Positions 3,761 through 34,154 of a stretch of DNA of 64,000 nt are shown in pieces. The DNA is taken from positions 583-64,582 of the forward strand of contig CAYQZE010000018.1 of assembly GCA_964421985.1 (NCBI GenBank), given 5' to 3'. Position numbers and translations under genes: made by a program. This DNA is from an uncultured Dehalococcoidia bacterium. Lineage in GTDB: Bacteria; Chloroflexota; Dehalococcoidia; DSTF01; JACRBR01. Position 1 is the stretch's first letter. Each line of letters opens with the position of its first letter. The notes under the pieces are model-generated. The model saw nothing but the letters and a program-made list of their open reading frames with translations. It did not search any database and was not told the DNA's origin.

Positions 3761-3789
3761 GGGCGCCGTCGGTGGTCCGGACGGCGCCC
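3761..3789. terminator. GC-rich hairpin (10-bp stem gggcgccgtc/gacggcgccc, 9-nt loop) in the convergent gap after the helicase gene
   Basis: Perfect inverted repeat read directly from the sequence. No U-tract, so this is a possible factor-independent terminator only. Confidence 0.35.
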
Positions 3790-3901
3790 CGCATGAGTGT
3801 GCTAACCCCATGTGACCGGCGCCGCTTGTGGCGGCAGCACGGTCGTCCTGCGGCGAAGCCAGGATGCGCGCAGACTCGTCTGGTGGCACGCGCGCCCGGC
3901 C

Positions 3902-4948
3902 TCATCGCTCCGCGCGCGAGTTCGGGGCCTCCATGCCAGGGCGAGCGCCCGCGCGCGCGGCACGGGTGAGGATGCGGCCGGCCAGCCCTACGCAACCGGC
4001 GATGAATCCAAGCCCGTACGCGAAGTGGAGACACGCGAAGACGACGGGTAGAGGTGGGACGCGTCGCCAGCCGTGTCGCCGTACAAGAGCGAGTGATGCG
4101 ATGGTGGCGCTGAGAGTATACACCCCCAGGAGGGCCTTGAGCGCGCCAGAGCGGCCAAGAATCGCGGCAAATGCTGTTGCGATCACGGCGCTGACGAATG
4201 CCGCCGGGACGAATTGCCGGGGCCGTGCCTGCGCCGGGTGCCTGCGCAACACCTCCGGCTTGGCGCGGCCGTAGCCGAAGTACTGGCACCAGACGCCGGG
4301 CAGGCCGCCACGCACCGTGTAGGTGGCGGCGATGCCAGGCGCCAGCGTAATGACGCCGCCATGGTCCAGGAGCCGGTAGTTGAATTCGTCGTCCTCGCCC
4401 TTCTCGATGTCTTCTGTGAAGCCGCCGATGCGTTCGAACACGTCGCGCCGATACGCGCCGAACGCGACCGTGTCTGCGGGGCCATCGCCGCCGATGCGAA
4501 ACGCCACGCCGCCGACGCCGAACCGCGACGACATGGCGACGGCGACCGCGCGGCCGACATAGGTGTCACCCTCGGTGGTGAGCGCGCCGCCGACGCAGTC
4601 CGCGACCGTGGTCTCCAGCGCCTCGACGTTGCGCCTGAGGAAGTCCCGCGCGACGGTCGCATGTCCATCGACGCGTACGACGACATCGCCGCGGGCTTCA
4701 GCGAGACCGATGTTCAGCCCGGCGGCCGTGCGGCGCCGCGGGTTCTCTAGCAGCCGCAGGTCCAGCGTGGATTCGGCAGCGAAGCGATAGATGATCGCTC
4801 TGGTCTTGTCGCTCGATTGGCCGTCGATGACGAGGACTTCGAAGCTGCCGCGCGGATAGTCCTGCGCAGCGATGCTGTAGAGACAGCGCTCGATGTAGCG
4901 TTCTTCGTTTCGCACGGGGACCAGGACTGAGACGAACGGCTGCCACAT
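3902..4948 (-). CDS. family 2 glycosyltransferase with C-terminal transmembrane segments
   Basis: GT2 core VSVLVPVRNEERYIERCL...VIDGQSSDKT...DDEF. C-terminal hydrophobic helices. Start ambiguous: ATG at 4948 or GTG at 4990. Confidence 0.75.
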   Translation of the reverse strand: MWQPFVSVLVPVRNEERYIERCLYSIAAQDYPRGSFEVLVIDGQSSDKTRAIIYRFAAESTLDLRLLENPRRRTAAGLNIGLAEARGDVVVRVDGHATVARDFLRRNVEALETTVADCVGGALTTEGDTYVGRAVAVAMSSRFGVGGVAFRIGGDGPADTVAFGAYRRDVFERIGGFTEDIEKGEDDEFNYRLLDHGGVITLAPGIAATYTVRGGLPGVWCQYFGYGRAKPEVLRRHPAQARPRQFVPAAFVSAVIATAFAAILGRSGALKALLGVYTLSATIASLALVRRHGWRRVPPLPVVFACLHFAYGLGFIAGCVGLAGRILTRAARAGARPGMEAPNSRAER

Positions 4949-5260
4949 GGAGGCAGTGTAGCGCCGGAACCTAACCCCCGGTCTGTACACCTACGAGGGA
5001 AGGGGAGCCTCGCAAGTGGATGTGGCGCGAAACGCGATAGGCGTCAGGCCGGTCCCAGCATACGCCTGCGGGCGCCCAACGTTAGGTGCACACCGACGCG
5101 GCCACAACGCTTCGGTTCAATGGCATATCGCGGGAATCATCCCACAGCCAACCGCCTCGATCAAACGAGATTGAACCGCTTCCACCGGAGTAGGCGTCGA
5201 TCGCCCCGACGGGAATCGAAGCAGTACCTGAGAAGCTCTCGCATCGGGTGAGCCGCGCGC

Positions 5261-5761
5261 CTATTCGACGGGGCTGGCTGCCTCGATCGGGCGCGTTTCC
5301 AGCGAGTCAAGCGCGATGCGGACGTTCTTGCCGAACAGCTGCAACTGATCGTCCAGGCGGCGCAGCATCTCGGTGGCGTAGCGGTCGGCTTCGTCCATCT
5401 GTTCGTTCGCCAGCTTCTCGGCCTCGCCCATGCGCGCGCGCGCCTGGTTCTCTGTGTCGAGCAGCATGTGGTCGCAGCGTGCTTCTGCCTCGCGCACCAG
5501 CATGTCGGCGCGCGCCTCGGCAGCCTTCACGACGGATTCGTTCGAAAGGATATCGTCGGCCTGCTCCTCCGCGCGGCGCAGCTTTATCTTCGACTCTTCC
5601 TCCGCGCGCTCGATCATCTCGTCGCGGCGGCGGAGAATGTCCTCCGCCTCCCTGATCTCCGTCGGCATCGCGGCGCGCATCTGGTCGACCAGGTCCAGCA
5701 GACGCCGGCGGTCGACGACGACGCCCGCGCCGATCGGCATGCGCCGGCCCTCGGCGACCAT
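5261..5761 (-). CDS. hypothetical coiled-coil protein (charged E/R/A-rich heptad-like sequence)
   Basis: 166-aa ORF, highly charged coiled-coil-like composition. It lies downstream of coaD-rsmD in the same orientation. No confident family assignment. Confidence 0.5.
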   Translation of the reverse strand: MVAEGRRMPIGAGVVVDRRRLLDLVDQMRAAMPTEIREAEDILRRRDEMIERAEEESKIKLRRAEEQADDILSNESVVKAAEARADMLVREAEARCDHMLLDTENQARARMGEAEKLANEQMDEADRYATEMLRRLDDQLQLFGKNVRIALDSLETRPIEAASPVE

Positions 5762-5823
5762 CTCCTCGAGGCGGTCGATGAGATGTAGAGAATCGATGGC
5801 GCACCTCCCTGTGCTGGCGCGGG

Positions 5824-6294
5824 CTATCCGCGCGCCGCGTACTTCTTCTTCAGCGCGGTCCAGACGTGCGGCGGTACCAGATCGCTCACATCATACCCCA
5901 GCGCCGATACCTCGCGAATGCGGGTGCCGCTTATGTAGAGGTGCTCGAGGCTGGCCATCATGAAGATCGACTCGATCTCGGGCGCCATCTTCTTGTTCAT
6001 CAGCGCCATGTCGAATTCTGCCTCGAAGTCGGTGACGGCGCGCATCGATCGGACAACCACGCTGACGCCCTGCTGTCGCGCGAACTCGACCGTCAACCCC
6101 GAAAATGACGTCACGTCGATGTTCCCGCAATCCGCCACGGCCTCGCGGAGCAAGCTGACGCGTTCGGCGGTGGAGAAGAGGTAGTTCTGCTTCAGATCCG
6201 CGACGGCGACCAGCACGGTATCGAACATCCTCGCGGCGCGGCGCACAATGTCCCGATGACCGTTGGTGACCGGGTCGAACCGGCCGGGGAACAT
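5824..6294 (-). CDS. coaD: phosphopantetheine adenylyltransferase
   Basis: MFPGRFDPVTNGHRDIV...SFSGL...ISGTRIRE, full-length CoaD (157 aa). ATG at 6292-6294 inside a longer upstream-extended ORF. Confidence 0.9.
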   Translation of the reverse strand: MFPGRFDPVTNGHRDIVRRAARMFDTVLVAVADLKQNYLFSTAERVSLLREAVADCGNIDVTSFSGLTVEFARQQGVSVVVRSMRAVTDFEAEFDMALMNKKMAPEIESIFMMASLEHLYISGTRIREVSALGYDVSDLVPPHVWTALKKKYAARG

Positions 6295-6875: not shown

Positions 6876-6913
6876 CGCGCGCGAGTCGTCGGTCGAGAGT
6901 CGTTGGTCGTGGG

Positions 6914-6960
6914 GATTGAACCACAGAGACACAGAGCCACAGAGATGCCTTGTTGGGTTA
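6914..6960. repeat. TTGAACC + CACAGAG x3 element (period 8), copy 1, 30-40 nt upstream of the rsmD start
   Basis: gattgaaccACAGAGacACAGAGccACAGAGatgccttgttgg. About 55 bp is shared with two copies at 28323-28378 and 28552-28608. Confidence 0.7.
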
Positions 6961-17807: not shown

Positions 17808-18482
17808 GTGGTCCAGCAGCGGGCACGCAGACTTCCGGCCGACAAGCGCAAGCGCCAGATCATCGAGAGCGCGCGCGGCGTCTTCGCGTCGCAGTCGTAC
17901 GCGCATGTCGGCACCGCCGACCTCGCGCGCGCCGCCGGCATCTCCGAACCGGCGCTCTATCGCCATTTCGCCGGCAAGAAGGAGCTGTTCGTCGCGACGA
18001 TCCGCGCGACAGGGCCGCGACTGCTGAAGATCTGGGAAGACATCTCCGTCGACTACGAAGACCCGATCGAGACGCTGTGGGCGATCGGCGTCTACTACTA
18101 CGACCACCTCGAGTCGCACTCCGCCAACATGAAGCTGCAGTTTCGCGCCCTGTCGGAAGCGGACGACCCGGAGATCCAGTCGGCGCTGCACGATAACTTC
18201 GAAGCGTTCGTCGAATTCGTCGCCGACACGCTGGAGGAAGGCAAAGCGCGCGGCGTCGTCAAGCGCGACGTCGACACGCGGCTCGTCGCCTGGCAGTTCC
18301 TCGGCATCGGCATGACGCTGGACCTGATGAACATGCTGGGGTTCAAGGACGAGATGGATCACGCGCGCGCCGACCTGTGGGGGCGCGTCTACCTGGAGAC
18401 GGTGCGCCGGAAGGACAGCCGCCGCCCGCAATACGCGACGGCCGAGGGCACCCCCCTGCGCGCCCCCGGCGGCAGTGGATAA
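17808..18482 (+). CDS. TetR/AcrR-family transcriptional regulator
   Basis: HTH region RKRQIIESARGVFASQSYAHVGTADLARAAGISEPALYRHF. GTG 17808 with GGAG ribosome-binding site preferred over GTG 17775, which lies inside the operator palindrome. Confidence 0.8.
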   Translation: MVQQRARRLPADKRKRQIIESARGVFASQSYAHVGTADLARAAGISEPALYRHFAGKKELFVATIRATGPRLLKIWEDISVDYEDPIETLWAIGVYYYDHLESHSANMKLQFRALSEADDPEIQSALHDNFEAFVEFVADTLEEGKARGVVKRDVDTRLVAWQFLGIGMTLDLMNMLGFKDEMDHARADLWGRVYLETVRRKDSRRPQYATAEGTPLRAPGGSG

Positions 18483-18537
18483 ACAATGGGCTGCGGCCCG
18501 CGGGGAATCGATCTGGTTCTAAGTTCTTGGGGATCGC

Positions 18538-19755
18538 ATGGACTTTCACGACACGCCAACCGAAGCAGCATTTCGCGCTGAAGTGCGCGCGTTCATCGAA
18601 AATGAGTGCCCGCCCGGCATCAAGCGCCGGGGCTTCCGCGCGGCGTTCGGCGGCGGCGGCTGGGACGACATCCGCATGTCGCGCGAGGAGTACTTCGCGA
18701 CGAACGGCGGTTGGGTGAAGAAGCTGGCAGAGCACGGCTGGATCGCGCCGGCCTGGCCGAAAGAGTACGGCGGCGCCGGGATGACCGTTATGGAGCAGTT
18801 CATCTTCAGCCAGGAGATGTCGCTCGCGGGCGCGCCGCGCGGCGGCAACTTCGGCATCGGCACCGGCTGGGCCGGCCCGACGATCATCCTCCACGGCACC
18901 GAGGAACAGCGCAAGCGGTATCTGCCGGGCATCGTGCAGGGCGACGAGGTCTGGTGCCAGGGCTTCAGCGAGCCGGGCGCCGGCAGCGACCTTGCATCGG
19001 TGCAGACGCGCGCGATCAAGGACGGCGACGACTACGTTGTCAACGGACAGAAGATCTGGACATCGGGCGCGCACGTCGCGAAGTACATGATCCTGCTCGC
19101 TCGCAGCGACCCCGACGCGCCCAAGCACAAGGGCATCAGCTACTTCATCGTCGATATGAAGTCGCCCGGCATCACCATCCAGCCGCTGGTGAACATGGCG
19201 AACAACCACGACTTCAACGAAGTCTTCTTCGACAACGTGCGCGTGCCGGCGAAGAACATGATCGGCGAGGAGAACCGCGGCTGGTACGTCGGCACGACGA
19301 CACTCGACTTCGAGCGCTCCGGTATCGCCACGAGCATCTCGCATTCGCTCATGGTGCAGGATCTCGCGACCTTTGTGCGCGAGAACAAAGGCCAGGGATT
19401 CATCTCGGAGAGCAAGAGCGTAAAGAACGAGATCGCCGACCGGATGATCGAAGCGGGCGTCGAGGAGATGCTGTCGTACCAGGTGATCTCGATGCAGAAC
19501 CGCGGCCTCGTGCCGAACAAGGAGTCATCGATCGCCAAGCTGTTCTCGTCGGAGCTGGACGTGCGGATCGCCGGCACCGCCATGCGCGTGCTGGGCCCCT
19601 ACGGCCAGCTGTGCACCGGCAGCGAGCACGCCCCGGCGGGCGGACGCGTCGAAAGCACATACCTGTACGCGACGACGAGCACAGTCGGTGGCGGAACATC
19701 GGAAATCCAAAGAAATATCATCGCGTCGCGCGGGCTGGGTTTACCCCGCGCGTAG
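18538..19755 (+). CDS. acyl-CoA dehydrogenase, paralog 1
   Basis: 405 aa. GWIAPAWPKEYGGAG, WCQGFSEPGAGSDLAS, C-terminal GGTSEIQRNIIASRGLGLPR. About 60-70% similarity to paralogs 2-5. Confidence 0.9.
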   Translation: MDFHDTPTEAAFRAEVRAFIENECPPGIKRRGFRAAFGGGGWDDIRMSREEYFATNGGWVKKLAEHGWIAPAWPKEYGGAGMTVMEQFIFSQEMSLAGAPRGGNFGIGTGWAGPTIILHGTEEQRKRYLPGIVQGDEVWCQGFSEPGAGSDLASVQTRAIKDGDDYVVNGQKIWTSGAHVAKYMILLARSDPDAPKHKGISYFIVDMKSPGITIQPLVNMANNHDFNEVFFDNVRVPAKNMIGEENRGWYVGTTTLDFERSGIATSISHSLMVQDLATFVRENKGQGFISESKSVKNEIADRMIEAGVEEMLSYQVISMQNRGLVPNKESSIAKLFSSELDVRIAGTAMRVLGPYGQLCTGSEHAPAGGRVESTYLYATTSTVGGGTSEIQRNIIASRGLGLPRA

Positions 19756-19771
19756 AAACATGAACGAGCGT

Positions 19772-19793
19772 GTAGCGCGGACTTCAGTCCGCG
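19772..19793 (+). repeat. REP element type 2 (GTAG + cgcggac/gtccgcg hairpin)
   Basis: GTAGCGCGGACTTCAGTCCGCG. An inverted degenerate copy of the palindrome core lies at 19815-19830. Confidence 0.55.
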
Positions 19794-19892
19794 TGAGGTG
19801 GGAAGCGGCGAACGCGCAGACTGAAGTCCACGCCACAGAATCGCCGAACAGACGACTGACGGCCGACGACCAATTCGAGAGAGGATCAACCG

Positions 19893-21074
19893 ATGAACTT
19901 TGCTGACAGCGCGGAAGAGGCGACGTTTCGGCAGGAGGTGCGCGACTTCGTCAACGCCGAGATCAAGTCCGACTTGAAGACCGGCGATCTGGTGGAGTCG
20001 GGCATGTATCGCGGCGCCTTCGAGCGCCTGAAGGGCGTGCGCGGCAAGCTCGCGAAGCGCGGCTGGATCGCCCCGGCGTGGCCGAAGGAGTACGGCGGTG
20101 CCAGTCTCTCCGTGATGCAGCAGTTCATCATGAACGAGGAGTTCGCCGAAAGCCGTGTGCCGCCCGTCGGCGGCATGGGCGTCTCGATGGTCGGACCGAC
20201 GATCATCACCCACGGCAACGAGGACCAGCGGAAGGAGCACCTGAGCCGCATCCTCTCGGGTGACGTGCAGTGGTGCCAGGGCTTCAGCGAGCCCGGATCG
20301 GGCTCCGACCTCGCGTCGCTGCAGACACGCGCGGTGAAGGACGGCGACGACTACGTGATCAACGGTCAGAAGATCTGGACATCCGGCGCTTCCTACGCGC
20401 ACTGGATGTTCATGATGGCGAGGACCGACCCTGATGCGCCGAAGCACAAGGGCATCAGCTACTTCCTCGTCGACATGAAGTCGCCTGGCGTCGAGGTGCG
20501 GCCGCTGACGAACCTCGCGAATCAGAACATGTTCAATGAGGTGTTCTTCCAGGACGTGCGCGTGCCGGCGAAGAACATCGTTGGCGAGGTGAACCGCGGT
20601 TGGTACGTCGGCACCACGACGCTCGACTTCGAGCGATCGAGCATCGGCAGCGCCGTCGGCCTCAAGCTGCAGCTCGATGAACTGGTGAAGTACGCGAAGC
20701 AAAACGAGAAGACAGGCAGCAGCCGCACCGGCTATCTCTCGTCAGTCAAGTCGGAGCTCGCCGACCGCTACGTCGAAGCGACCGTCGCGAAAATGATGTC
20801 CTATCGCGTCGTCACGATGCAGGCCAAGGGCCTGATCCCCAACCATGAAGCATCGATGACCAAACTCTTCGCTTCGGAGTTGACGCAGCGCATCGCGCGC
20901 ACGGGCGTGAAGGTGCTGGGTCTGTACGGGCAGCTCTACGGCGAAGGCGCACCGATGCGTGGCCGTTACGAGAGCTCGTACATGACGTCCCTCGCATCGA
21001 CGATCGCCGGCGGCACCAGCGAGATCCAGCGAAACATCATCGCGACCAGAGGGCTCGGACTACCGCGGGACTGA
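19893..21074 (+). CDS. acyl-CoA dehydrogenase, paralog 2
   Basis: 393 aa with the same motif set as paralog 1. Confidence 0.9.
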   Translation: MNFADSAEEATFRQEVRDFVNAEIKSDLKTGDLVESGMYRGAFERLKGVRGKLAKRGWIAPAWPKEYGGASLSVMQQFIMNEEFAESRVPPVGGMGVSMVGPTIITHGNEDQRKEHLSRILSGDVQWCQGFSEPGSGSDLASLQTRAVKDGDDYVINGQKIWTSGASYAHWMFMMARTDPDAPKHKGISYFLVDMKSPGVEVRPLTNLANQNMFNEVFFQDVRVPAKNIVGEVNRGWYVGTTTLDFERSSIGSAVGLKLQLDELVKYAKQNEKTGSSRTGYLSSVKSELADRYVEATVAKMMSYRVVTMQAKGLIPNHEASMTKLFASELTQRIARTGVKVLGLYGQLYGEGAPMRGRYESSYMTSLASTIAGGTSEIQRNIIATRGLGLPRD

Positions 21075-21088
21075 CGAGATGGTCGCCT

Positions 21089-21116
21089 GGTGAGTAGTGA
21101 CTAGTGATTGGTGGGT
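21089..21116. repeat. heptad array GGTGAGT-AGTGACT-AGTGATT-GGTGGGT; left terminal inverted repeat of four-helix-bundle cassette 1
   Basis: Four tandem 7-mers with consensus RGTGAYT. Inverted relative to the array at 21499-21526. Confidence 0.6.
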
Positions 21117-21127
21117 TGTCCCATCGC

Positions 21128-21451
21128 ATGGAGAAGGGATACGAGGATCTAGAGGTGTACCGCCGCGGACTCGCCTTGCAGCGACCGGTTCATGCGCTCG
21201 TCCTCCGATTTCCCGACTATGAGAAATACGACCTCGCGAGCCAAATGCGCCGGGCATGCAAGTCGATTCCGACCAATATTGTCGAGGGCTACGCGCGACG
21301 GCGATCTCCAAAGGAATTTTGCAGCTATCTCGCGCTGTCCGTAGGCTCAGCCAACGAGATGGAAGTACATTTCAAGATTGCGAAGGAGCTCGACTACATC
21401 AACGAAGCGGAGTTCGCACACTTCATCGAGGAATATCAGATCATCGGCTAA
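21128..21451 (+). CDS. four-helix-bundle protein (TIGR02436 / 23S rRNA intervening-sequence protein family), probably C-terminally truncated
   Basis: MEKGYEDLEVYRRGLAL...DLASQMRRACKSIPTNIVEGYARRR...SANEMEVHFKIA. TAA at 21449; in-frame continuation (QLTRLIQYWRT) is homologous to the C-terminus of the paralog at 23982-24389. Confidence 0.7.
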   Translation: MEKGYEDLEVYRRGLALQRPVHALVLRFPDYEKYDLASQMRRACKSIPTNIVEGYARRRSPKEFCSYLALSVGSANEMEVHFKIAKELDYINEAEFAHFIEEYQIIG

Positions 21452-21498
21452 CAACTAACGCGGCTTATCCAGTACTGGCGGACAAAAGGCGACGAGTC

Positions 21499-21526
21499 GG
21501 TCACCAGTCACCAATCACCAATCACG
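21499..21526. repeat. heptad array GGTCACC-AGTCACC-AATCACC-AATCACG; right terminal inverted repeat of cassette 1
   Basis: Reverse complement reads CGTGATT-GGTGATT-GGTGACT-GGTGACC. Followed by GAGGAGACCAGACG and the ATG of ACAD paralog 3. Confidence 0.6.
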
Positions 21527-21539
21527 AGGAGACCAGACG

Positions 21540-22721
21540 ATGGACTTTAAGGACACGCCGACCGAAGCAGCATTTCGCAACGACGTGCGCACGTTCATTC
21601 AGGCCGAGGCGCCGAAGCGGAAGCTGGGCCAATCGGTCGAGGAAGCGATGGTGTCCGGCTGGCAGGCGAACCAGGAGTGGTTCCACAAGCTGGGCAGGAA
21701 GGGCTGGATCGCCCCGGCCTGGCCGAAGGAGTACGGCGGCGCCAGCATGACCACCGTCGAGCAGTTCATCTTCAACGAGGAGATGGCGCTCAACAAGGCG
21801 CCGCGCCCCCTGCACCAGATCATCGGGCTGGGCATGGCCGGCCCGACGCTCATCGTCCACGGCACAGAGGAGCAGCGGAAGAAGTACCTTCCGGGCATGT
21901 TGACCGGCGACGACGTCTGGTGCCAGGGCTACAGCGAGCCGGGCGCAGGCTCCGACCTCGCATCCTTGCAGACCCGCGCCGTGCGCGAAGGCGACGACTA
22001 CGTCGTGAACGGCCAGAAGATCTGGACGACGCTGGCGCACATCGCCCGCTACATGATCCTGCTCACGCGCACCGATCCGGATGCGCCGAAGCATCGCGGC
22101 ATCACGTACTTCATCCTCGATATGAAGTCGCCCGGCGTCGAAGTGCGGCCGCTCTACAACCTCGGCAACAGTCACGAGTTCAACGAGGTGTTCTTCGACA
22201 ACGTGCGCATCCCGAAGGACAACGTCATCGGCGAGGAGAACCGCGGCTGGTACTCCGCCGTCACCACGCTCGACTTCGAGCGCTCCAGCATCGGCAGCGC
22301 GACGGGCATGAAGCAGCACGTCGAAGAGCTGATCGACTACGCGACAGAGCACGCAGGCGACCCCACGAGCACGCTCCGGACGAACCCGATGCTGCGCTAC
22401 GAGCTTGCGGACCGCATGGTCGAGACCGAGGTCGCACGGATGCTGTCGTATCGCGTGGCCTCGATGCAAGCGCGCGGGCTGATCCCGAACTACGAGGCGT
22501 CGTCGCTGAAACTGTTCTCGACGGAGCTGAACCAGCGCATCGCGAAGTCGGCGATCCATATCCTGGGGCTCTACGGTCAACTGCGCGGCGACAGCGCGCC
22601 GACGAAGGGCCGCTGGCTCGGCCTGTTCTTGCGCTCGGCGGCGTATCCCCTCGAAGGCGGCACGTCCGAGATCCAGCGCAACATCCTCGCCCAGCGCGGC
22701 CTCGGCCTCCCGCGAGACTAA
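21540..22721 (+). CDS. acyl-CoA dehydrogenase, paralog 3
   Basis: 393 aa. MDFKDTPTEAAFRNDVRTFI...GWIAPAWPKEYGGAS...GGTSEIQRNILAQRGLGLPRD. Confidence 0.9.
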   Translation: MDFKDTPTEAAFRNDVRTFIQAEAPKRKLGQSVEEAMVSGWQANQEWFHKLGRKGWIAPAWPKEYGGASMTTVEQFIFNEEMALNKAPRPLHQIIGLGMAGPTLIVHGTEEQRKKYLPGMLTGDDVWCQGYSEPGAGSDLASLQTRAVREGDDYVVNGQKIWTTLAHIARYMILLTRTDPDAPKHRGITYFILDMKSPGVEVRPLYNLGNSHEFNEVFFDNVRIPKDNVIGEENRGWYSAVTTLDFERSSIGSATGMKQHVEELIDYATEHAGDPTSTLRTNPMLRYELADRMVETEVARMLSYRVASMQARGLIPNYEASSLKLFSTELNQRIAKSAIHILGLYGQLRGDSAPTKGRWLGLFLRSAAYPLEGGTSEIQRNILAQRGLGLPRD

Positions 22722-22749
22722 CGCCCGTGCCGGTGGATGGGAGTCCACG

Positions 22750-23931
22750 ATGCGATTCAAGTTCACGCCAGCACAAGAAGCATTCCGCACTGAGGTCAAC
22801 ACCTTCCTCAAGGAGACGCTGCCGCCCGACTGGGAGGGCGCGGATAACGCGATCGACGACGAGTCGTACGAGTTCGGGCGCGAGTTCCTGAAGAAGCTAG
22901 CGCCCAAACGCTGGATCGCGCCGGCATGGCCGACGGAGTACGGCGGGCTTGCGCTCTCGCACTGGGACCAGGTCATCTACAACGAGGCGATGGGCTACGC
23001 GCGCGCACCGATCATCAACGCGGCCGCGACGGGCTACCTCGGCCCGACCGTCATTCTCTACGGCAGCGACGAGCAGAAGGCGCAGCACCTGCCAGGCATC
23101 ACCTCCGGTGAAGTGGTGTGGTGCCAGGGGTACAGCGAGCCGAACTCCGGATCCGACCTCGCCTCACTGCAGACGCGCGCGGTGATGGACGGTGACGACT
23201 TTATCCTCAACGGGCAGAAGATCTGGACTAGCCAGGCGCACTACGCCGACTGGATGTTCGTCCTGGCGCGCACCGACCCCGACGCACCGAAGCATCGCGG
23301 CATCAGCTACTTCCTCATGGATATGAAGACGCCCGGCATAAGCGTGCGGCCGCTGGTCAATATGGCGAATGGTGCAGGCTTCAACGAAGTCTTCTTCGAG
23401 AACGTACGCATCCCGAAGTCCGGCCTGTTGGGAGAACTCAACCGCGGTTGGTACATCGCGACCACGACGCTCGACTTCGAGCGCTCGTCGCTGACCGGGA
23501 CGGCGCAGTCGCAACGCTCGCTCGAAGACCTGACGCGATTCGCGAAGACGGAGCGCCAGGCGGGCACCGGCGCCCGGCTCTGGGACAGGCCGGCCGTGCG
23601 GCACACCCTCGCCGACCTGTGGGTGTCGCTCGACGTGACGCGCATGCTGTCGTACCGCGTCGTCAGCATGCAGGCGCGCGGTTTGGTGCCCAACTACGAA
23701 GCGTCGATCATCAAGGTCTTCAATACGGACTATGTGCAGCGACAGGCGCGCGTCGGCCTCGGCCTCATGGGCCTCTACGGCGGACTGTGGGGCGAAGGCC
23801 CTTGGTCGAAGCTGCGCGGCCGCTTCGCGAAGTCCTACGTCGCCACGGTCGGCGCGGCGATCGCCGGCGGCACGACGGAGATCCAGCGCAACATCATCGC
23901 CCAGCGCGGTTTGGGCTTGCCGAGGCAGTAA
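22750..23931 (+). CDS. acyl-CoA dehydrogenase, paralog 4
   Basis: 393 aa. WIAPAWPTEYGG...WCQGYSEPNSGSDLAS...GGTTEIQRNIIAQRGLGLPRQ. Confidence 0.9.
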   Translation: MRFKFTPAQEAFRTEVNTFLKETLPPDWEGADNAIDDESYEFGREFLKKLAPKRWIAPAWPTEYGGLALSHWDQVIYNEAMGYARAPIINAAATGYLGPTVILYGSDEQKAQHLPGITSGEVVWCQGYSEPNSGSDLASLQTRAVMDGDDFILNGQKIWTSQAHYADWMFVLARTDPDAPKHRGISYFLMDMKTPGISVRPLVNMANGAGFNEVFFENVRIPKSGLLGELNRGWYIATTTLDFERSSLTGTAQSQRSLEDLTRFAKTERQAGTGARLWDRPAVRHTLADLWVSLDVTRMLSYRVVSMQARGLVPNYEASIIKVFNTDYVQRQARVGLGLMGLYGGLWGEGPWSKLRGRFAKSYVATVGAAIAGGTTEIQRNIIAQRGLGLPRQ

Positions 23932-23942
23932 TGGTGGCCGAG

Positions 23943-23963
23943 AGGTCAGAAGTCAGAGGTCGG
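23943..23963. repeat. heptad triplet AGGTCAG-AAGTCAG-AGGTCGG; left terminal inverted repeat of four-helix-bundle cassette 2
   Basis: Matches 18 of 21 positions of the reverse complement of the triplet at 24347-24367. Confidence 0.6.
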
Positions 23964-23981
23964 AATGTGACAAGCACGAGC

Positions 23982-24389
23982 GTGATCAAAAGCTTTCGTG
24001 ACCTTCAGGTGTACCAGCGCGGTATGTCGTTGCTGAAGCCGGTGCATGAGCTGACGCGCACGCTGCCAGACTACGAGAAGTACGATCTTGCGAATCAACT
24101 TCGTCGCGCCTGCAAGTCAGTGCCCGCGAACATCGCGGAAGGTTACGCGAAGCGGCGCTCAGCGAAGGAGTTTCGCGCCTACCTGACCAACGCGATGGGC
24201 TCCGCGACCGAGATGGAAGTGCATCTGGAAATCGCACGCGAACTGGAATACATTTCGATCGAAGAGGCCGCGCAGCTAATCGACCAGTACCAGATCCTGG
24301 CGAGACAGCTGTACCGGCTCATCGAGAAGTGGCGCACGCTCGAGATCCGACCTCCGACTTCCGATCTCTCAGCCACCGGAACGGATTGA
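23982..24389 (+). CDS. four-helix-bundle protein (TIGR02436 / 23S-IVS protein family), full-length paralog
   Basis: GTG start gives IKSFRDLQVYQRGMSLL..., aligning with MEKGYEDLEVYRRG of paralog 1. C-terminus QILARQLYRLIEKWRT. TGA overlaps the ATG of ACAD5 (TGATG). Alternative in-frame starts at 23931 and 23967. Confidence 0.7.
   Translation: MIKSFRDLQVYQRGMSLLKPVHELTRTLPDYEKYDLANQLRRACKSVPANIAEGYAKRRSAKEFRAYLTNAMGSATEMEVHLEIARELEYISIEEAAQLIDQYQILARQLYRLIEKWRTLEIRPPTSDLSATGTD
24347..24367. repeat. heptad triplet CCGACCT-CCGACTT-CCGATCT within the 3' end of four-helix-bundle gene 2; right terminal inverted repeat of cassette 2
   Basis: Reverse complement reads AGATCGG-AAGTCGG-AGGTCGG. The 7-nt periodicity is out of codon phase, so this is a DNA-level repeat. 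Confidence 0.6.
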
Positions 24390-25570
24390 TGGACTTCCGA
24401 GATTCTCCCGAAGACGCAGCATTCCGGCAAGAAGTACGCGACTTCCTGCGTGATGAGCTGCCGCACGACCTGCGGGCCGCCGATGACGCGATCCTGGGCG
24501 TGGGCATCGGCGAGGATGAGCGCGAGCGCGACTGGCTGCGGACGCTGGCAAAGCGCGGCTGGGTCGCGCCGGCGTGGCCGAAGGCCTACGGCGGCGCCGG
24601 TCTCTCCGTGATGCAACAGTTCGTCTTCAACGAAGAGATGGCACGCGCCGCGGCGCCGCGGCCGAACTGCCTCGCGATCGGCCTCGCAGGGCCGACGATC
24701 ATCGTGCACGGGACCGAGGAGCAGAAGCGCGAGCACCTCTCGGGCATCCTCTCCGGCGAACAGTTCTGGTGCCAGGGATTCAGCGAGCCGGGGTCGGGAT
24801 CGGACCTGGCGTCGCTGCAGACGCGCGCCGTGGAGGATGGTGACGACTACATCATCAACGGCCAGAAGATCTGGACGTCAGGCGCGCACCGCTCGCAGCG
24901 GATGATGCTGCTGGCGCGCACGGACCCGGACGTACCGAAGCACAAGGGCATCAGCTACTTCCTCCTGAACATGAAGTCGCCGGGCATCACGGTGCGGCCG
25001 CTGACGAACATCGCGGACACGCCGAGCTTCAACGAAGTGTTCTTCGACAACGTACGCGTGCCGAAGAGCGACCTGCTGGGCGAGTTGCACCGCGGCTGGT
25101 ACGTGGCGACGACCACGCTCGATTTCGAGCGCTCGGGCATCATCAATGGCGTTTCCCTGCAGCGGCTCGTGCATGAACTCGCTGCGTTCGTCCGCGATCG
25201 CGATCGCGTGCGGGATGACCCCGGCCTGGAAACCGTCCGACACGAGCTGGCGGACCGGGCGATCGAGGCACGGATCTCTATCGTGCTGTCCTACAGAGTG
25301 GCGACGATGCAAGCGAAGGGCATCGTGCCCAACCAGGAGGCATCGATCACCAAGTTGTTCGGATCTGAGCTGGCGCAGCGCATCGCGCGCACCGGTGTTA
25401 AGCTCAGCGGCCTCTACGGACAGCTGCGGGCGGGGTCGGCGCGCGCGCCGTTGGGCGGGCGGCTGGACGCGATGTATCGCATCGCGGTCGGCTCGACCCT
25501 GGCGGGCGGCACGTCGGAGATCCAGCGCGGCGTGATCGCGCAGCGCGGGCTGGGGATGCCGCGGGGATGA
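24389..25570 (+). CDS. acyl-CoA dehydrogenase, paralog 5
   Basis: 394 aa. MDFRDSPEDAAFRQEVRDFL...GWVAPAWPKAYGGAG...GGTSEIQRGVIAQRGLGMPRG. Confidence 0.9.
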   Translation: MDFRDSPEDAAFRQEVRDFLRDELPHDLRAADDAILGVGIGEDERERDWLRTLAKRGWVAPAWPKAYGGAGLSVMQQFVFNEEMARAAAPRPNCLAIGLAGPTIIVHGTEEQKREHLSGILSGEQFWCQGFSEPGSGSDLASLQTRAVEDGDDYIINGQKIWTSGAHRSQRMMLLARTDPDVPKHKGISYFLLNMKSPGITVRPLTNIADTPSFNEVFFDNVRVPKSDLLGELHRGWYVATTTLDFERSGIINGVSLQRLVHELAAFVRDRDRVRDDPGLETVRHELADRAIEARISIVLSYRVATMQAKGIVPNQEASITKLFGSELAQRIARTGVKLSGLYGQLRAGSARAPLGGRLDAMYRIAVGSTLAGGTSEIQRGVIAQRGLGMPRG

Positions 25571-25664
25571 GGCTGGAAGTGGAAGCAGGAAACGGGATGC
25601 GAGAAGCGAGATGCGCGAACCGAAAGCGATCACGAATCGTGCTGTGCGAGCGGGCGGGTCATCG

Positions 25665-26051
25665 ATGAAGCGTATCGGCCTTGCTCTGGCAATCGCGCTG
25701 GCCATCTACGGCCTGGCCGTAGGCGTCGGTTCGCTGCTGTACGCGACCGGCGCGATATCGACCGGCGCGACGCACAACGACTGCGACCGCGCGCTGATCG
25801 CGCGGACGCTCGGGAAGGCGGACGACGACCTGACGCAGCAGGAGTTGAAGGAGGGGACGCAGACGTGCCTCGACGAGCATCAACTGACGAAAGGGCACGC
25901 CTTTCGCACCGAGTATCTGTTCTGGTCGGCGTGGCCTGCCGTCATCTGCGCGGTCGTGTTCCTGGCGTGGCCGGCGTGGGCGCAGATTCTGCGAACGCAG
26001 GAAGACGCCGATCGCGATGCCGAAGCGAGCCGTCAGCAGATGGGGCAATGA
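25665..26051 (+). CDS. small hypothetical membrane protein
   Basis: MKRIGLALAIALAIYGLAVGV... with two TM helices. Start uncertain (25611 or 25665). Confidence 0.4.
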   Translation: MKRIGLALAIALAIYGLAVGVGSLLYATGAISTGATHNDCDRALIARTLGKADDDLTQQELKEGTQTCLDEHQLTKGHAFRTEYLFWSAWPAVICAVVFLAWPAWAQILRTQEDADRDAEASRQQMGQ

Positions 26052-26139
26052 CCGGGTAGGCAACAACAAGGGATGACTTCCGCCTAAGGCGGATCAATTG
26101 CATAATCTGGATCCGAAGAAAGGAAAGGGGAACGCACAC

Positions 26140-27264
26140 ATGGACCTGGGTCTGTCCGAAGAACAAGAACTGCTGAAGAACGCAGCGCGCGACTTCCTGG
26201 AGAAGGAGTGCCCGGAAACGCTCGTCCGCGAGATGGAGGACGACGAGAAGGGGTACTCCCCTGATCTCTGGAAGAAGATGGCTGAGCAGGGCTGGCAGGG
26301 GCTGCTGATCCCCGACGCCCACGGCGGCGCGGGATTCGGCTACCTCGACCTGATCATCCTGATCGAGGAGTTCGGGCGAGCCCTGGTGCCGGGTCCGTTC
26401 ATCTCGACGCAGGTCGGCGGCGTCTTGCCGCTACTCGAGGGCGGGACCGACGATCAGAAGAAGCAGTACCTGCCGAAGATCGCCAGCGGCAACGCCATCT
26501 GGACCCTCGCCTACACCGAGCCCTCCGCCCGCTTCGACACCGAGGGCGTGGCGCTCGAAGTGAAGGAGGACGGCAACGACCTCGTGCTCAATGGCACGAA
26601 GCTCTTCATCCGCGACGCGAACGTCGCCGACTTCTTCACGGTCGTCGGCCGCAAGCCGGGCACGAAGGGCGACGACGGCATCACGCTCGTCATCGTCGAT
26701 GCGAAGACCGCCGGCATCAGCCAGACGCAACTCAAGACCATCGCCGCCGACAAGCAGGCCGAAGTGAAGTTCGAGAACGTCCGCGTGCCGAAAGCGAGCA
26801 TCATCCCGGGCGGCGCCGCCACCCTCAAGAAGGTGCAGCGCAAGGCGACCGTGCTGGAGTGCGCGTACCTCGTCGGACTGGCGCAGATGGACTTCGAGGT
26901 CAGCGTGCAGTACGCGAAGGACCGGATCCAGTTCGGCCGGCCGATCGGCTCGTTCCAGGCGATTCAGCACAAGGCCGCCGACATGGTGACCGACGTCGAC
27001 GGCTCCCGCTTCATCATGTACCGCGCCGCCTGGTCCGTCGACCAGGACGAATCCGACGCCGACATGAACGTGCACATGGCGAAAGCGTGGTGCAGCGAGG
27101 CGACGCGCCGCGTCGTGGCGCATGGCCAGCAGATCCACGGTGGCATCGGCTTTACGAAGGACTACAAGATCCAGCTCTACTTCCGCCGCCAGAAAGCGTC
27201 CGAACTGGCCTGGGGCGACGGCGACTACCACCGCGAGCTGGTGGCGTCGGAGCTGGCGATCTAG
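26140..27264 (+). CDS. acyl-CoA dehydrogenase (distinct sixth ACAD, short-chain-like)
   Basis: 374 aa with classical ACAD architecture (TEPSARFDTEG...QIHGGIGFTKDYKIQLYFRR). ATG 26140 with AAAGGAAAGGGG ribosome-binding site. Confidence 0.85.
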   Translation: MDLGLSEEQELLKNAARDFLEKECPETLVREMEDDEKGYSPDLWKKMAEQGWQGLLIPDAHGGAGFGYLDLIILIEEFGRALVPGPFISTQVGGVLPLLEGGTDDQKKQYLPKIASGNAIWTLAYTEPSARFDTEGVALEVKEDGNDLVLNGTKLFIRDANVADFFTVVGRKPGTKGDDGITLVIVDAKTAGISQTQLKTIAADKQAEVKFENVRVPKASIIPGGAATLKKVQRKATVLECAYLVGLAQMDFEVSVQYAKDRIQFGRPIGSFQAIQHKAADMVTDVDGSRFIMYRAAWSVDQDESDADMNVHMAKAWCSEATRRVVAHGQQIHGGIGFTKDYKIQLYFRRQKASELAWGDGDYHRELVASELAI

Positions 27265-27304
27265 CGCCGCCCGTCGACGACGAAGGCTCGAACCAGCATG
27301 TAAG

Positions 27305-27335
27305 GAAGGGCCGCCCACATCGGGCGGCCCTTCCT
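27305..27335. terminator. 13-bp perfect-stem hairpin (ggaagggccgccc / gggcggcccttcc, loop acatc) between convergent ACAD6 and panE-like genes; bidirectional terminator candidate
   Basis: Read directly from the sequence. Confidence 0.5.
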
Positions 27336-27342
27336 TGCTCAA

Positions 27343-28314
27343 CTAACCGCCCATCTCGGCTTCTACATCGTGCACGCTCACGGATCCCGGTGCGGCGCCG
27401 TCGCGCGCCATGCGCGATGCGATCGCCTGCAGCGCGGCGTTCGCGCGCGTGGCGACGCCGTGCAGCCTGCCCAGCAGGGCGATCTCGCCGTTGAGGTAGT
27501 CGGTCTCGATGCTGCCGGTCTTGCGGGCGAGGCTCTGCCACGACGACCCGCCGGCGCGGGCATGCCCCGCGATCTCGCGCATCGGCGACATCGGCCTGCG
27601 CCGCTCGTTCATCTCGTCGTCCGACGCCCAATCGATGCCGGCGGCGCGATAGCAGGCGATCGCTTCGTCGCGCAGGCGGGCGTGGAGTGCGCGCGTGTTG
27701 CCGCCGAGGCCGCATGAAGCCTGGACGGCGTTGCCGAGGTTCGAGAGCAGCTTGGCGTACTTCCAGCGCATGATATCGGCCGTCGGATGCGCGCTGATGC
27801 CCGACGCGTCGAGGTCCGCGGTGACGCGTGCGATCAGCGCGTCGCTGCCCGACGGATAGCAACCCGCATCGAGCACGCCGCTGACGGGTGCGCAGTGTGC
27901 TTGCACACGCCCGGGATCGAGATGCGTCGCGGGCAGCAGGACGAGCATCCCGTAGACGTTGGCGAACCGCCGCGCCGCCAAACGCTCGTTCTCGACGCCG
28001 TTCTGGGCGCAGACGACGGGCACGTGCGGTCCGGCCGTGGTGTGGAGGTCGGCGAGCGCGGCGGCCGTGTGCTGCGTCTTCATCGTCATCAGCACGACGT
28101 CATCCCCGGTGAACCGCAGCTCGGACGGATGGGCGACGGCGCTGATGCGCAGCGTCGTGCTCGTATCCGGCGTCTCGAGTGTCAGGCCGTGGCCGCGAAT
28201 GGCATCGAGGTGCCGCCCGCGCGCGATCAGCACGACGTCGTGCCCTTGCTGGAAGAGCCGCCCGCCGATGACGCCTCCGACGGCGCCGGCACCGTAGATG
28301 ATGTAGCGCGTCAT
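27343..28314 (-). CDS. 2-dehydropantoate 2-reductase (ApbA/PanE) family protein
   Basis: MTRYIIYGAGAVGGVIGGRLFQQGHDVVLIARG Rossmann N-terminus. The start is set at the MTRY methionine inside the longer ORF. Confidence 0.8.
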   Translation of the reverse strand: MTRYIIYGAGAVGGVIGGRLFQQGHDVVLIARGRHLDAIRGHGLTLETPDTSTTLRISAVAHPSELRFTGDDVVLMTMKTQHTAAALADLHTTAGPHVPVVCAQNGVENERLAARRFANVYGMLVLLPATHLDPGRVQAHCAPVSGVLDAGCYPSGSDALIARVTADLDASGISAHPTADIMRWKYAKLLSNLGNAVQASCGLGGNTRALHARLRDEAIACYRAAGIDWASDDEMNERRRPMSPMREIAGHARAGGSSWQSLARKTGSIETDYLNGEIALLGRLHGVATRANAALQAIASRMARDGAAPGSVSVHDVEAEMGG

Positions 28315-28722
28315 GCTTGATTTTGAACCACAGAGGCACAGAGGCACAGAGGCTTTGGATGATGGTGGATGGTGGAGATCAACGGGGCGGGCAAGAGCGA
28401 TTGGAACGGCCGCCCGAGCGCGAACGGCCTCTCTTCTCGTCTGCGCACCCGGATTGCCGGAGAGGTCTATGTATTCGAACGCACGGCGTACAGCCGATGA
28501 CGCCTCCGACGGCGCCGGCACCGTAGATGATGTAGCGCGTCATGCTTGATTTTGAACCACAGAGGCACAGAGGCACAGAGGTTTTGGTGGGTGGTGGATG
28601 GTGGAGACCAACGGGGCGGGCAAGAGCGATTGGGAACGGCCGCCCGAGCGGGAACGGCCTCTTTTCTCATCTGCGCGCCCGGATTGCCGGAGAGGTCTAT
28701 GTATTCGAACGTACGGCGTACA
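28264..28722. repeat. tandem duplication of a 229-bp unit (copies 28264-28492 and 28493-28722, about 95% identical)
   Basis: The unit spans the first ~17 codons of the panE-like gene, the intergenic CACAGAGG x3 element and the last ~13 codons of the hydrolase-cyclase gene. The junction sits at a shared gccg microhomology. It generates the pseudo-ORFs MTRYIIYGAGAVGGVIG... and ...QRLYAVRSNT. Confidence 0.85.
28323..28378. repeat. TTGAACC + CACAGAGG x3 element, copy 2 (8 nt upstream of the panE-like start on the minus strand)
   Basis: ttttgaaccACAGAGGCACAGAGGCACAGAGGctttggatgatggtgg. Copy 3 at 28552-28608 lies inside the duplicated unit. Confidence 0.75.
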
Positions 28723-33994: not shown

Positions 33995-34110
33995 TCCGGA
34001 GGTGCGGCTGCTGACGAATCTGGCGAATCAGACGGGGCTTATCCGGTGCTGGCGAACAAGAGGCGGCGCGTAGGCCACCAATCACCAGACACCAATCACA
34101 AGGAGACCAG
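33995..34110 (+). pseudogene. 3' relic of a four-helix-bundle (TIGR02436-like) gene with its terminal heptad array, placed just 5' of larC
   Basis: About 80% nucleotide identity to 21461-21540. Translation ...LLTNLANQTGLIRCWRTRGGA* parallels the C-terminal helix of the 4HB paralogs. Followed by heptads GGCCACC-AATCACC-AGACACC-AATCACA and AAGGAGACCAGAC. Confidence 0.45.
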
Positions 34111-34154
34111 ACCGGCGCTACGGCGCGGTACGATGGTGGACGGAGGATGCGCGT

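Follow-up and report, generated by a model that had tools for sequence, protein, structure and literature searches.

Inverted tandem-heptad arms bound PF05635 four-helix-bundle genes in an acyl-CoA dehydrogenase operon of a Dehalococcoidia bacterium and across bacterial phyla

Within a 64-kb stretch of DNA (67% G+C) from an uncultured Dehalococcoidia bacterium, referred to here as the window, two genes encoding PF05635/TIGR02436 four-helix-bundle proteins, the only PF05635 genes that it contains, lie between paralogous acyl-CoA dehydrogenase (ACAD) genes, each enclosed by two inverted arms of tandem 7-nt repeats (heptads). Comparison of these two units, cassettes 1 and 2, with homologous loci (designated by L numbers) documents their anatomy, its generality across phyla (in rRNA, operons and plasmids), the discreteness of the units, their turnover and decay, and the existence of gene-less relatives. 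We consider it probable that the cassettes are open reading frame (ORF)-bearing members of a widespread family of heptad hairpin elements that resemble rRNA intervening sequences (IVSs), that are mobile or at least rapidly exchanged, and that probably serve as RNase III substrates.

The TIGR02436/PF05635 family is annotated in many bacterial genomes, is represented by two crystal structures and, to our knowledge, has no known function. IVSs of rRNA mostly lack an ORF; described as selfish elements from the early 1990s onward, they have no known means of spread. Dispersed heptanucleotide repeats are familiar from cyanobacteria as short tandemly repeated repetitive (STRR) sequences; we know of no explanation for such tandem repeats, including the GGGAATC repeats of Xanthomonas, which have been catalogued for decades.

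Two cassettes in an ACAD operon

The host context is a run of four co-directional ACAD paralogues on the forward strand (19893..25570; genes at 19893-21074, 21540-22721, 22750-23931 and 24389-25570, assigned by Pfam and a phmmer map), which belong to an array of six, and the cassettes occupy two of the intercistronic spacers. The left arm of cassette 1 (21081..21116, forward strand; inverted-repeat pairs I4, I14 and I15) opens with a terminal GGTCGCC and continues in the purine-rich heptads TGGTGAG TAGTGAC TAGTGAT TGGTGGG, which over 21089-21116 can also be read as GGTGAGT AGTGACT AGTGATT GGTGGGT. The ORF (21128..21451, forward strand) encodes a 107-aa PF05635/TIGR02436 four-helix-bundle protein (Pfam E 2.2e-27; TIGR02436 87 bits), truncated by a TAA at 21449-21451 with the loss of about half of helix 4; tblastn passes this stop as far as 21481, yielding QLTRLIQYWR, and the untranslated 3' remnant (21452..21498, forward strand) reads QLTRLIQYWRTKGDES in frame. 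In the right arm (21499..21539, forward strand), GGTCACC AGTCACC AATCACC AATCACG is followed by AGGAGACCAGAC, up to the ATG at 21540; Tandem Repeats Finder reports period 7 at 21501-21525, and a Shine-Dalgarno (SD) sequence, GAGGAG (21526-21531), stands 8 nt ahead of that ATG. The first heptad of this arm, GGTCACC (21499-21505), is a direct repeat of the GGTCGCC at 21081-21087, the two bracketing the left arm and the gene.

Cassette 2 begins 2 nt past the TAA of the upstream ACAD gene with a left arm (23933..23964, forward strand; inverted repeat I1, its boundary taken from alignment with L080, L083 and L001) that consists of GGTGGCCGAGAG followed by GTCAGAA GTCAGAG GTCGGA; the array at 23943-23963 reads AGGTCAG AAGTCAG AGGTCGG. 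Its ORF (23982..24389, forward strand) encodes a 135-aa PF05635/TIGR02436 protein (Pfam E 1.3e-31; TIGR02436 107 bits), which the public annotation starts at the ATG at 23931 (152 aa; P0001, 99% identical), in a TAATG overlap with the upstream stop codon (23929-23933). At the other end, the TGA of the ORF overlaps the ATG of the next ACAD gene (TGATG, 24387-24391). The right arm (24346..24377, forward strand), TCCGACC TCCGACT TCCGATC TCTCAGCCACC, lies inside the tail of the ORF, out of codon phase; the array at 24347-24367 (CCGACCT CCGACTT CCGATCT) has the reverse complement AGATCGG AAGTCGG AGGTCGG, identical to the left array at 18 of 21 positions, and the arms found by a repeat finder reach 32 nt with 88% complementarity (23933-23964 and 24346-24377).

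All of the array strings and coordinates given for both cassettes by a first-pass annotation of this DNA, including the 18 of 21 identities, proved correct, as did its statement that the heptads differ (GGTGAYT type in cassette 1, GAGGTCR type in cassette 2) while the architecture of inverted arms is alike. It had also called the TAA of the first gene premature, which the tblastn readthrough bears out. Its further claim, that each cassette ends ahead of the next ACAD start codon with a GGAG-like ribosome-binding site, holds for cassette 1 (GAGGAG, 8 nt) and fails for cassette 2, in which the stop and start codons overlap and no good SD sequence is found. Nor are tandem 7-mers common in the window, where strict period-7 arrays number five versus 0.6 in block shuffles, and two of the five are at the cassettes; the arrangement lies well outside chance expectation.

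As RNA, the arms are predicted to form a duplex of -39.9 kcal/mol in cassette 1 (z -5.3) and of -53.0 kcal/mol in cassette 2 (z -9.0) when compared with shuffled partners, and minimum-free-energy folds of the whole cassettes pair both flanks (z -1.7 and -5.0, respectively). The arms, 36 nt long in cassette 1 and 32 nt in cassette 2, enclose an ORF of the S23p family and qualify as the terminal inverted repeats of an ORF-containing IVS, for which a stem of at least 20 bp is required. No Rfam model matched at E up to 1 in 19700-26200, that is, in and around the cassettes. On the forward strand, no sigma-70-like promoters or intrinsic-terminator-like sites were found in 18400-27400, a weak negative given that the promoter type of the host is not known; an ACAD array uninterrupted by forward-strand promoters or terminators is consistent with co-transcription.

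Inverted heptad arms flank the gene across phyla

To place the two cassettes within their family, we used 79 genome loci with homologues, from Chloroflexota, Patescibacteria/candidate phyla radiation (CPR), metagenome-assembled genomes of Gammaproteobacteria, Binatia, Phycisphaerae and Oscillospiraceae. For 82 gene copies, the 110-nt upstream flank was aligned with the 110-nt downstream flank in reverse complement, with 30 controls of the same geometry at each locus. What the first-pass annotation had read from two genes of this family applies widely: the inverted 7-periodic repeat exceeded the best of the 30 local controls in 70 of the 82 copies, and the direct orientation outscored the inverted one in just three. 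The cognate downstream arm was the best of all 82 candidates for 27 upstream arms and among the top three for 50. Over the 426 kb of loci, 80 of 127 period-7 arrays fall within the gene-adjacent 8.3% of the sequence (p 1e-53).

The arms typically comprise 3-5 units, with 8 or more in some CPR copies, and have a median aligned stem of 32 nt. Their heptads are lineage-specific (GAAGCGG, GAGGTCR, GGTGAYT, GATGTTR, GAAGATA, GTTGCTG and TTCGARG), the upstream arm is nearly always the purine-rich strand, and the consensus unit begins with GA in 65 of 82 cases. Mimicry of an SD/anti-SD interaction by these purine-rich arms was tried as a candidate and rejected: hybridization to the 3' tail of 16S rRNA has a mean of -8.0 kcal/mol, weaker than the -9.0 kcal/mol of composition-matched shuffles. 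Transition-type mismatches between the arms yield G.U on the sense strand more often than A.C (117 versus 78, p 0.006), and the sense-strand duplex is the more stable in 44 cassettes versus 26 for the antisense strand (p 0.006), a strand bias that modestly favours a stem formed in the sense RNA.

Neighbouring genes were called from GC3-filtered ORFs, as a naive choice of the longest ORF picks antisense ORFs in high-GC DNA. Co-directional genes lie on both sides of 34 of 81 cassettes, including nearly all of the Chloroflexota copies, which are tightly packed as well, and ACAD homologues adjoin 21 of 80, in 13 of them on both sides. The ORF overlaps the next start codon in eight of about 53 assessable cases and ends within 5 nt of it in six more; this total of about 14 is near what reading-frame chance would give, and we do not regard the stop/start overlap as a designed feature.

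The same arrangement is found on plasmids, where inverted heptad arms flank PF05635 genes in Nostoc (GGGAGTA), Calothrix (GGGTGTA), Geminocystis (AAGGGAA), Leptolyngbya and Azospirillum; most of the cyanobacterial plasmid copies show it, and a further Nostoc plasmid carries a degenerate form. On the Nostoc edaphicum plasmid pNe_5 (L085, 1400-1900), a cassette with (GGGAGTA)x8 and (TACTCCC)x5 arms separates the two ribonucleotide reductase subunit genes and lies on the strand opposite to theirs.

Turnover at orthologous ACAD sites

We compared seven syntenic ACAD operons (those of the window, L080, L083, L095, L097, L098 and L044), whose ACAD proteins are 84-94% identical, at four successive intercistronic sites, a/b, b/c, c/d and d/small. 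At site a/b, the GGTGAYT-type cassette is common to the window and L097, each with a nonsense mutation of its own (TAA at codon 108 and TAG at codon 11, respectively); L083 has a TCGTTGG-type cassette and L044 one of a related TCGTTGG/TCGCTGG type. The same site in L098 consists of 48 nt alone, TCTGGTCGCC AGTCACC AGTCACG AGGAG..., which is the window sequence minus everything between the direct heptads GGTCGCC (21081) and GGTCACC (21499).

At site b/c, the window has 34 array-free nt, L044 a gene-less hairpin (GATGTTC GATGTTA GAGGTTA cc AACATCG AACATCT AACATCG), L097 a full GAGGTGR cassette and L098 a solo right arm of the GAGGTGR type. L083 and L095 carry an unrelated element of about 230 nt at this position, between ACAD_b and ACAD_c (L083 2885-3115; L095 843-1096); this element, which comprises CACGAAGGA-type repeats and a hairpin, GGGACAGGTCTTGAGACCTGTCC, also occurs in L096 (1132 onward), where it follows an ACAD gene at the start of the contig. 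Site c/d holds cassette 2 in the window, a GGATGGA-type cassette in L083 and L044 that is just 49-53% identical to it, a GAAGCTG-type cassette in L098 and a solo array in L095. In L097 it holds a gene of 398 aa with a DarT (PF14487) domain (4815-6011); selfish genes seem to gather in the spacers of this operon.

The relatives of cassette 2 are found instead at site d/small, where L080, L083 and L001 have a GAGGTCR cassette 77-90% identical to it (81-90% for L083 and L080). The ACADs that flank cassette 2 are 88-94% identical to those of L083 and L080, yet the cassette at the orthologous c/d site is only 49-53% identical and built of another heptad. When cassette 2 is aligned with the d/small copies, similarity starts directly past the upstream stop codon (GTGGCYGAGA...) and ends at ...AGCCACC, the termini GGTGGCTGRGA and the GAGGTCR arms being common to all, while the flanks are unrelated. 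The heptad-built inverted ends therefore travel with the gene, and it is the arm-bounded unit, not its neighbourhood, that these copies share. In the window, the d/small site is occupied by a solo array of purine-rich heptads (25571..25626, forward strand; GGCTGGA AGTGGAA GCAGGAA ACGGGAT GCGAGAA GCGAGAT GCGCGAA CCGAAAG); solo GAAGCGG-type arrays are found at this site in the window, L095 and L096, and L097 is empty. Beside the solo array of L096 (3704-3872, about 3770-3830; in part in L095, 2270-2446), a perfect 22-bp inverted repeat, GGACGCAGCTTTAGCTCCGTCC / GGACGGAGCTAAAGCTGCGTCC, looks like a different hairpin, similar to a miniature inverted-repeat transposable element (MITE).

The first-pass annotation had proposed to compare orthologous ACAD loci for presence or absence of the cassettes, and the sites do differ in cassette type or presence. 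Its suggestion of mobility or site-specific recombination is supported in its first part by the turnover among related genomes; nothing supports site-specific recombination, and no recombinase is encoded. Taken together, the comparisons show that the units turn over and decay into pseudogenes, solo arms and gene-less hairpins. Comparison with MITEs and their terminal inverted repeats (TIRs) shows TIR-like ends in the cassettes and, at cassette 1, the 7-nt direct repeat GGTCGCC/GGTCACC, which matches the L098 junction. No target-site duplication is seen at cassette 2 in the alignment with its relatives, and at cassette 1 there is the heptad-level direct repeat alone, so that a general target-site duplication is not supported.

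Heptad arrays without the gene

Starting from the arrays instead of the gene, we scanned metagenomes for perfect (GAGGTCG)3 and obtained 80 loci. An inverted partner array lies downstream at 20 of these, mostly 1-104 nt away, versus upstream at two; the 20 are gene-less hairpins with the purine-first polarity of the cassettes. The other 58, with no partner detected within 900 nt, were classed as solo arrays and reach 30 units. None of the 80 had a PF05635 homologue nearby (E up to 1e-6). Since array-first sampling yielded no cassette, heptad arrays form a wider class that includes the gene-bearing cassettes as one part, and the link is unidirectional: where the gene is found arrays are expected, but an array does not foretell the gene. 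The pattern recalls rRNA IVSs, the majority of which have no ORF. The first-pass annotation had named arrays without the gene as evidence against its reading, and such arrays do exist, solo arms and gene-less hairpins being common. In the window itself, a right arm like that of cassette 1 stands alone (34073..34112, forward strand; GGCCACC AATCACC AGACACC AATCACA AGGAGACCAGAC), upstream of a LarC-like gene (PF01969, 34155-35336), with no PF05635 gene near it.

The encoded protein and its translated arms

Both window proteins score well above the curated cut-offs (PF05635: 95.8 and 109.4 bits versus 33.8; TIGR02436: 87.2 and 107.5 bits versus 24). PF05635 is their only Pfam match, and no HUH/Y1 transposase, recombinase or mobility enzyme is encoded in the cassettes. 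A role as known anti-phage defence proteins was rejected, as PADLOC gave no match for them at E up to 0.01. The AlphaFold2 (AF2) model of the cassette 2 protein (predicted local distance difference test, pLDDT, 87) has helices at residues 26-43, 53-73, 78-104 and 110-136. With this model, Foldseek places Xanthomonas XCC0516 on top (2GSC; template-modelling (TM) score 0.91-0.93; phmmer E 1.7e-16), followed by BT_0352 (2RLD, TM 0.82-0.89) and, as a distant third, the Bordetella phage protein Avd (4DWL, E 0.076, TM 0.72). The family has the conserved motif RRAxxSxxxNIAEG, and an alignment of homologues shows invariant Q56, R58, R59, A60, K62, S63, I68, E70 and G71.

The bundle spans residues 26-136, and the tails encoded by the arms are disordered in the model. 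The conserved C-terminal tail DLRPPTSDL of homologues (EIRPPTSDL in cassette 2) is a direct translation of (TCCGACC)n, N-terminal "extensions" such as RSEVGGR in cassette 2 homologues are translated (AGGTCGG)n, and the tails of the cassette 1 subfamily, of TSNQSPGDQ type, are translated (GTCACCA)n-like arrays. Because the arm translations are disordered tails, this supports the arms as signals at the DNA or RNA level and not as protein features, as had been proposed from the out-of-phase right array of cassette 2. Annotators should accordingly be cautious of N- and C-terminal "extensions" of PF05635 proteins, which are translated repeat arms.

Relation to rRNA intervening sequences

The first-pass annotation had placed the proteins in a family that includes the IVS proteins, and TIGR02436 membership agrees; the architecture of the rRNA IVS itself had escaped it. 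In Coxiella burnetii, the 23S rRNA IVS contains an S23p (PF05635) ORF, described as decaying. Its terminal inverted repeats pair in a stem of 28 bp, which RNase III cuts in vitro, and ahead of the ORF the heptamer GACAGAT is repeated in tandem two or three times, depending on the strain (PMC4990558). The ORF-containing 23S IVSs of Coxiella burnetii and Leptospira have in common with the cassettes (i) the protein family encoded in the loop, (ii) a stem of about 28-32 bp, (iii) heptamers in the arms and (iv) a decay-prone ORF. They differ in that (i) the rRNA IVS sits in an rRNA helix, whereas the window cassettes lie in intercistronic spacers of an mRNA operon and touch the flanking stop and start codons; (ii) heptamers are noted only on the 5' side of the Coxiella IVS, whereas both arms of the window cassettes are heptad arrays; and (iii) RNase III cutting was shown in vitro for Coxiella, and excision with no religation for Coxiella and other rRNA IVSs, both of which would apply to the window cassettes by homology. 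Given the features shared with Coxiella, the window cassettes are the IVS build set within an mRNA operon. As they lie outside rRNA, we call them IVS-like; they are not IVSs in the strict sense.

Copies in CPR genomes bridge the two settings: some lie inside 16S rRNA (L046, L064 and L049) or 23S rRNA (L045) and others just downstream of 16S rRNA, all of them on the rRNA strand and with heptad arms alike. A preprint on CPR rRNA insertions reports 23S_rRNA_IVP ORFs within 16S and 23S insertions. In the searchable literature on rRNA IVSs, we did not find it stated as a rule that both arms are inverted heptad arrays. Three CPR rRNA operons (L023, L033 and L050) also have group II intron domain matches and a group I intron within 1-1.5 kb of their PF05635 cassettes.

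Relation to dispersed heptanucleotide repeats

In Xanthomonas, orthologues of the crystallized XCC0516 separate accB from accC; GGGAATC units precede the gene, and CCCATTC units follow it as far as the ATG of accC. In L093 and L094 (2929-3372), such a cassette with GGGAATC arms splits the accB-accC operon. The cassette protein (P0131) is indexed in 241 collection blocks, and the cassette was present in 25 of 25 contigs read. The same heptamer is reported to be massively enriched in the genus, X. campestris pv. campestris having 186 such sites, of which 70 are convergent pairs, and has been read as a G-quadruplex former, with S23p/four-helix-bundle proteins unmentioned (PMC4692102). Other dispersed heptanucleotide repeats include GGGGA(C/T)T in Nostoc/Anabaena (PMC4692102) and TAACTGA in Beggiatoaceae (PMC4679880). 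These repeats resemble the cassette arms: they are intergenic, consist of 7-nt units repeated in tandem from 3 to more than 10 times, and often form convergent inverted pairs. The papers that describe them (PMC4692102, PMC4679880) offer G-quadruplex or regulatory readings and no S23p, four-helix-bundle or IVS proteins. A canonical G-quadruplex does not apply to the window arms because the GGTGAYT and GAGGTCR heptads have no G3 runs. Our full-text literature searches did not find a general association between PF05635 genes and heptad arrays stated.

On the Geminocystis plasmid, a third array of the cassette's own heptad lies 2.7 kb away. A Nostoc sp. TCL26-01 plasmid (L101) contains (TCAGTTA)x6 (18680-18722), the reverse complement of the Beggiatoaceae TAACTGA, and, between two genes (26087-26203), the inverted heptad arrays (GATTGCA)x6 and (CAATCTN)x3, which enclose no gene.

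Other repeats of the window

Further repeats were noted in the window. A tandem duplication of about 229 nt (28260-28680) copies the 5' end of a minus-strand ApbA/PanE-like gene (27343-28521) and bears CACAGAGG x3 octamer arrays (28329-28353 and 28558-28581) and GGTGGAT-type heptads (28356-28376 and 28584-28606). At 6883-6945, GAGTCGTYGGTCG x2 (GTCGTYG-type heptads) is followed by TTGAACCACAGAGACACAGAGCCACAGAG; the motif GAACCACAGAG of this segment recurs at 28320 and 28550, which suggests a further dispersed repeat, small in size and associated with heptads. Ahead of the ACAD gene at 19893, the 137-nt spacer contains a 13-bp inverted repeat, GCGGACTTCAGTC / GACTGAAGTCCAC (19777-19831), followed by three GA-phased heptads, GACGACT GACGGCC GACGACC (19851-19871).

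Discussion

In anatomy, an element consists of a purine-rich array of 3-5 heptads, a PF05635 ORF of about 110 aa and the reverse-complement array; it begins right past the upstream stop codon, is co-oriented with the operon and ends at the start region of the next gene. In the scheme that we favour, the arms are predicted to pair imperfectly in the transcript over about 30 bp, closing a loop of about 400 nt. By analogy with the Coxiella IVS, whose stem is cut by RNase III, operon copies would therefore be excised from the polycistronic RNA. The downstream cistron would be served by the SD sequence at the right end (cassette 1) or by the stop/start overlap (cassette 2), by which, we infer, the element is kept neutral to its host. 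The heptad periodicity may matter because slippage, the presumed source of the arrays, would keep regenerating long arms that tolerate shifts in register. As for the protein, the pentamers of Avd and XCC0516 suggest by analogy that it most likely binds the element's own nucleic acid.

Several observations weigh against this scheme. Complementarity between the arms is only about 82%, transversions being frequent, and their unit counts are uncorrelated (Spearman rho 0.24, p 0.07; 0.13 in the high-GC subset), so matched unit numbers in the two arms are not supported. The family-wide G.U bias is modest in size, and both window cassettes fold slightly better as antisense RNA. A plain RNA stem accounts neither for the 7-nt periodicity nor for the purine arm upstream of the ORF. 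Two plasmid copies are exceptions: in Pseudanabaena galeata (L089) the arrays are direct and not inverted (1370-1500 and 1860-1990), and one Nostoc commune copy has no arms. The cassettes encode no mobility enzyme, RNase III cutting is extended to them from one experimentally studied rRNA relative, and the empty (GAGGTCG)3 sample indicates that arrays are largely independent of the gene. The L089 gene lies between cas6 and cas4, flanked by (AAAAGCT)x16 and (AAAAGCC)x10; PF05635-type genes inside cas operons were noticed by Zhang & Ye, without mention of repeats.

That the gene predicts arrays (70 of 82) and arrays do not predict the gene (0 of 80) would also be expected of a DNA-level system akin to repetitive extragenic palindromes (REPs) and their associated tyrosine transposases (RAYTs), in which the PF05635 protein would recognize, spread or maintain its own arrays, the gene copy acting as master and gene-less arrays as its non-autonomous progeny. 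As in REP/RAYT (REPIN) systems, a small gene stands between inverted short repeats that are also dispersed gene-free in the same genome, and several types coexist: the window has solo arms at 34073 (34073-34112; cassette 1 type) and 25571 (another type), the GGGAATC of the XCC0516 arms recurs at the Xanthomonas sites (PMC4692102), and the Geminocystis plasmid has its third array. Gene-less pairs keep the purine-first polarity (20 versus 2), and each cassette has its own heptad, with arms and gene co-inherited, although common descent predicts such co-inheritance equally well. We nevertheless judge this reading unlikely. RAYTs are homologues of HUH/Y1 (IS200/IS605-like) transposases, whereas the cassette protein is a helical bundle of about 110 aa with no known catalytic activity and no recognizable nuclease or recombinase fold, its nearest structures being XCC0516, BT_0352 and Avd. 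REP repeats are palindromic, whereas those of the cassettes are tandem heptads; and, unlike RAYT genes, the cassettes are multicopy, with several types per genome, are often pseudogenized and change location. Because they encode no HUH transposase, the cassettes are not members of the REP/RAYT class.

The abundance of solo arrays and of tight gene-less hairpins could also mean that generic heptanucleotide simple sequence repeats (SSRs), reported to outnumber all other long SSR classes in many bacteria (cited in PMC4679880), form hairpins first, by polymerase slippage in intergenic DNA, and that the PF05635 ORF is a separate selfish gene lodged in their loops, the arms then being a property of the site. 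A solo arm at site b/c in L098, where L097 has a full cassette of the same heptad, would fit. We think this improbable: cassette 2 at c/d shares its arms with the d/small cassettes of relatives amid unrelated outside sequence, so the arms move with the gene, and one site carries entirely different arms in different genomes.

Equally hard to credit is a domesticated intercistronic regulator of benefit to the host, in which the stem, and perhaps the protein, would adjust how the ACAD cistrons are processed, how stable they are or how their translation is coupled. Its appeal lies in the precise placement between a stop codon and the next start, the SD sequence or stop/start overlap at the right end (eight overlaps and six ends within 5 nt of about 53), the 21 of 80 cassettes beside ACAD homologues (13 on both sides) and the persistence of the Xanthomonas cassette within accBC across many strains (P0131). 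Against this, genomes with ACADs 84-94% identical differ freely in whether a cassette is present, of which type it is and how intact, the ORF was broken independently in the window and in L097, the overlap rate is near the reading-frame expectation, and the same type of element occurs in rRNA, in cas operons, on plasmids and beside unrelated genes.

Avd is a pentameric, nucleic-acid-binding helical bundle that partners a reverse transcriptase. That the cassette genes are Avd accessory genes of a diversity-generating retroelement, as membership of PF05635 in the Avd superfamily and the weak Foldseek match to 4DWL might suggest, is refuted for practical purposes: the NF033474 equivalog model gives 16.5 bits versus a cut-off of 80, ACADs and no reverse transcriptase lie on both sides of each cassette, no direct repeat resembling a template/variable repeat pair and longer than 33 nt occurs in 20900-24600, and Avd genes, which have the fold and superfamily in common only distantly, are not described with heptad-array flanks.

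Beyond the proposal of IVS-like elements, we raise tentatively, as a view more doubtful than that proposal, that PF05635 genes and tandem heptad arrays are two halves of one phylum-spanning and undescribed element class, with the cassette as its autonomous form, hairpins and solo arrays as its non-autonomous forms, and the protein acting on its cognate heptads.

The evidence ties together PF05635 proteins, rRNA IVSs and heptanucleotide repeats: whether in rRNA or in an operon, the gene nearly always stands between inverted arrays, intergenic sites exchange the arm-bounded unit over short evolutionary times, and the crystallized XCC0516 sits in a unit built of the heptamer that litters the Xanthomonas genome. 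Whether the stems are cut by RNase III, whether the protein binds heptads and whether arrays depend on the gene become testable questions in culturable organisms, for which Xanthomonas accB-accC offers a convenient system. If the two halves do belong together, one class of element would explain the ORF-containing rRNA IVSs, a large share of the excess heptanucleotide repeats of bacteria and the scatter of "four helix bundle protein" genes through their operons.

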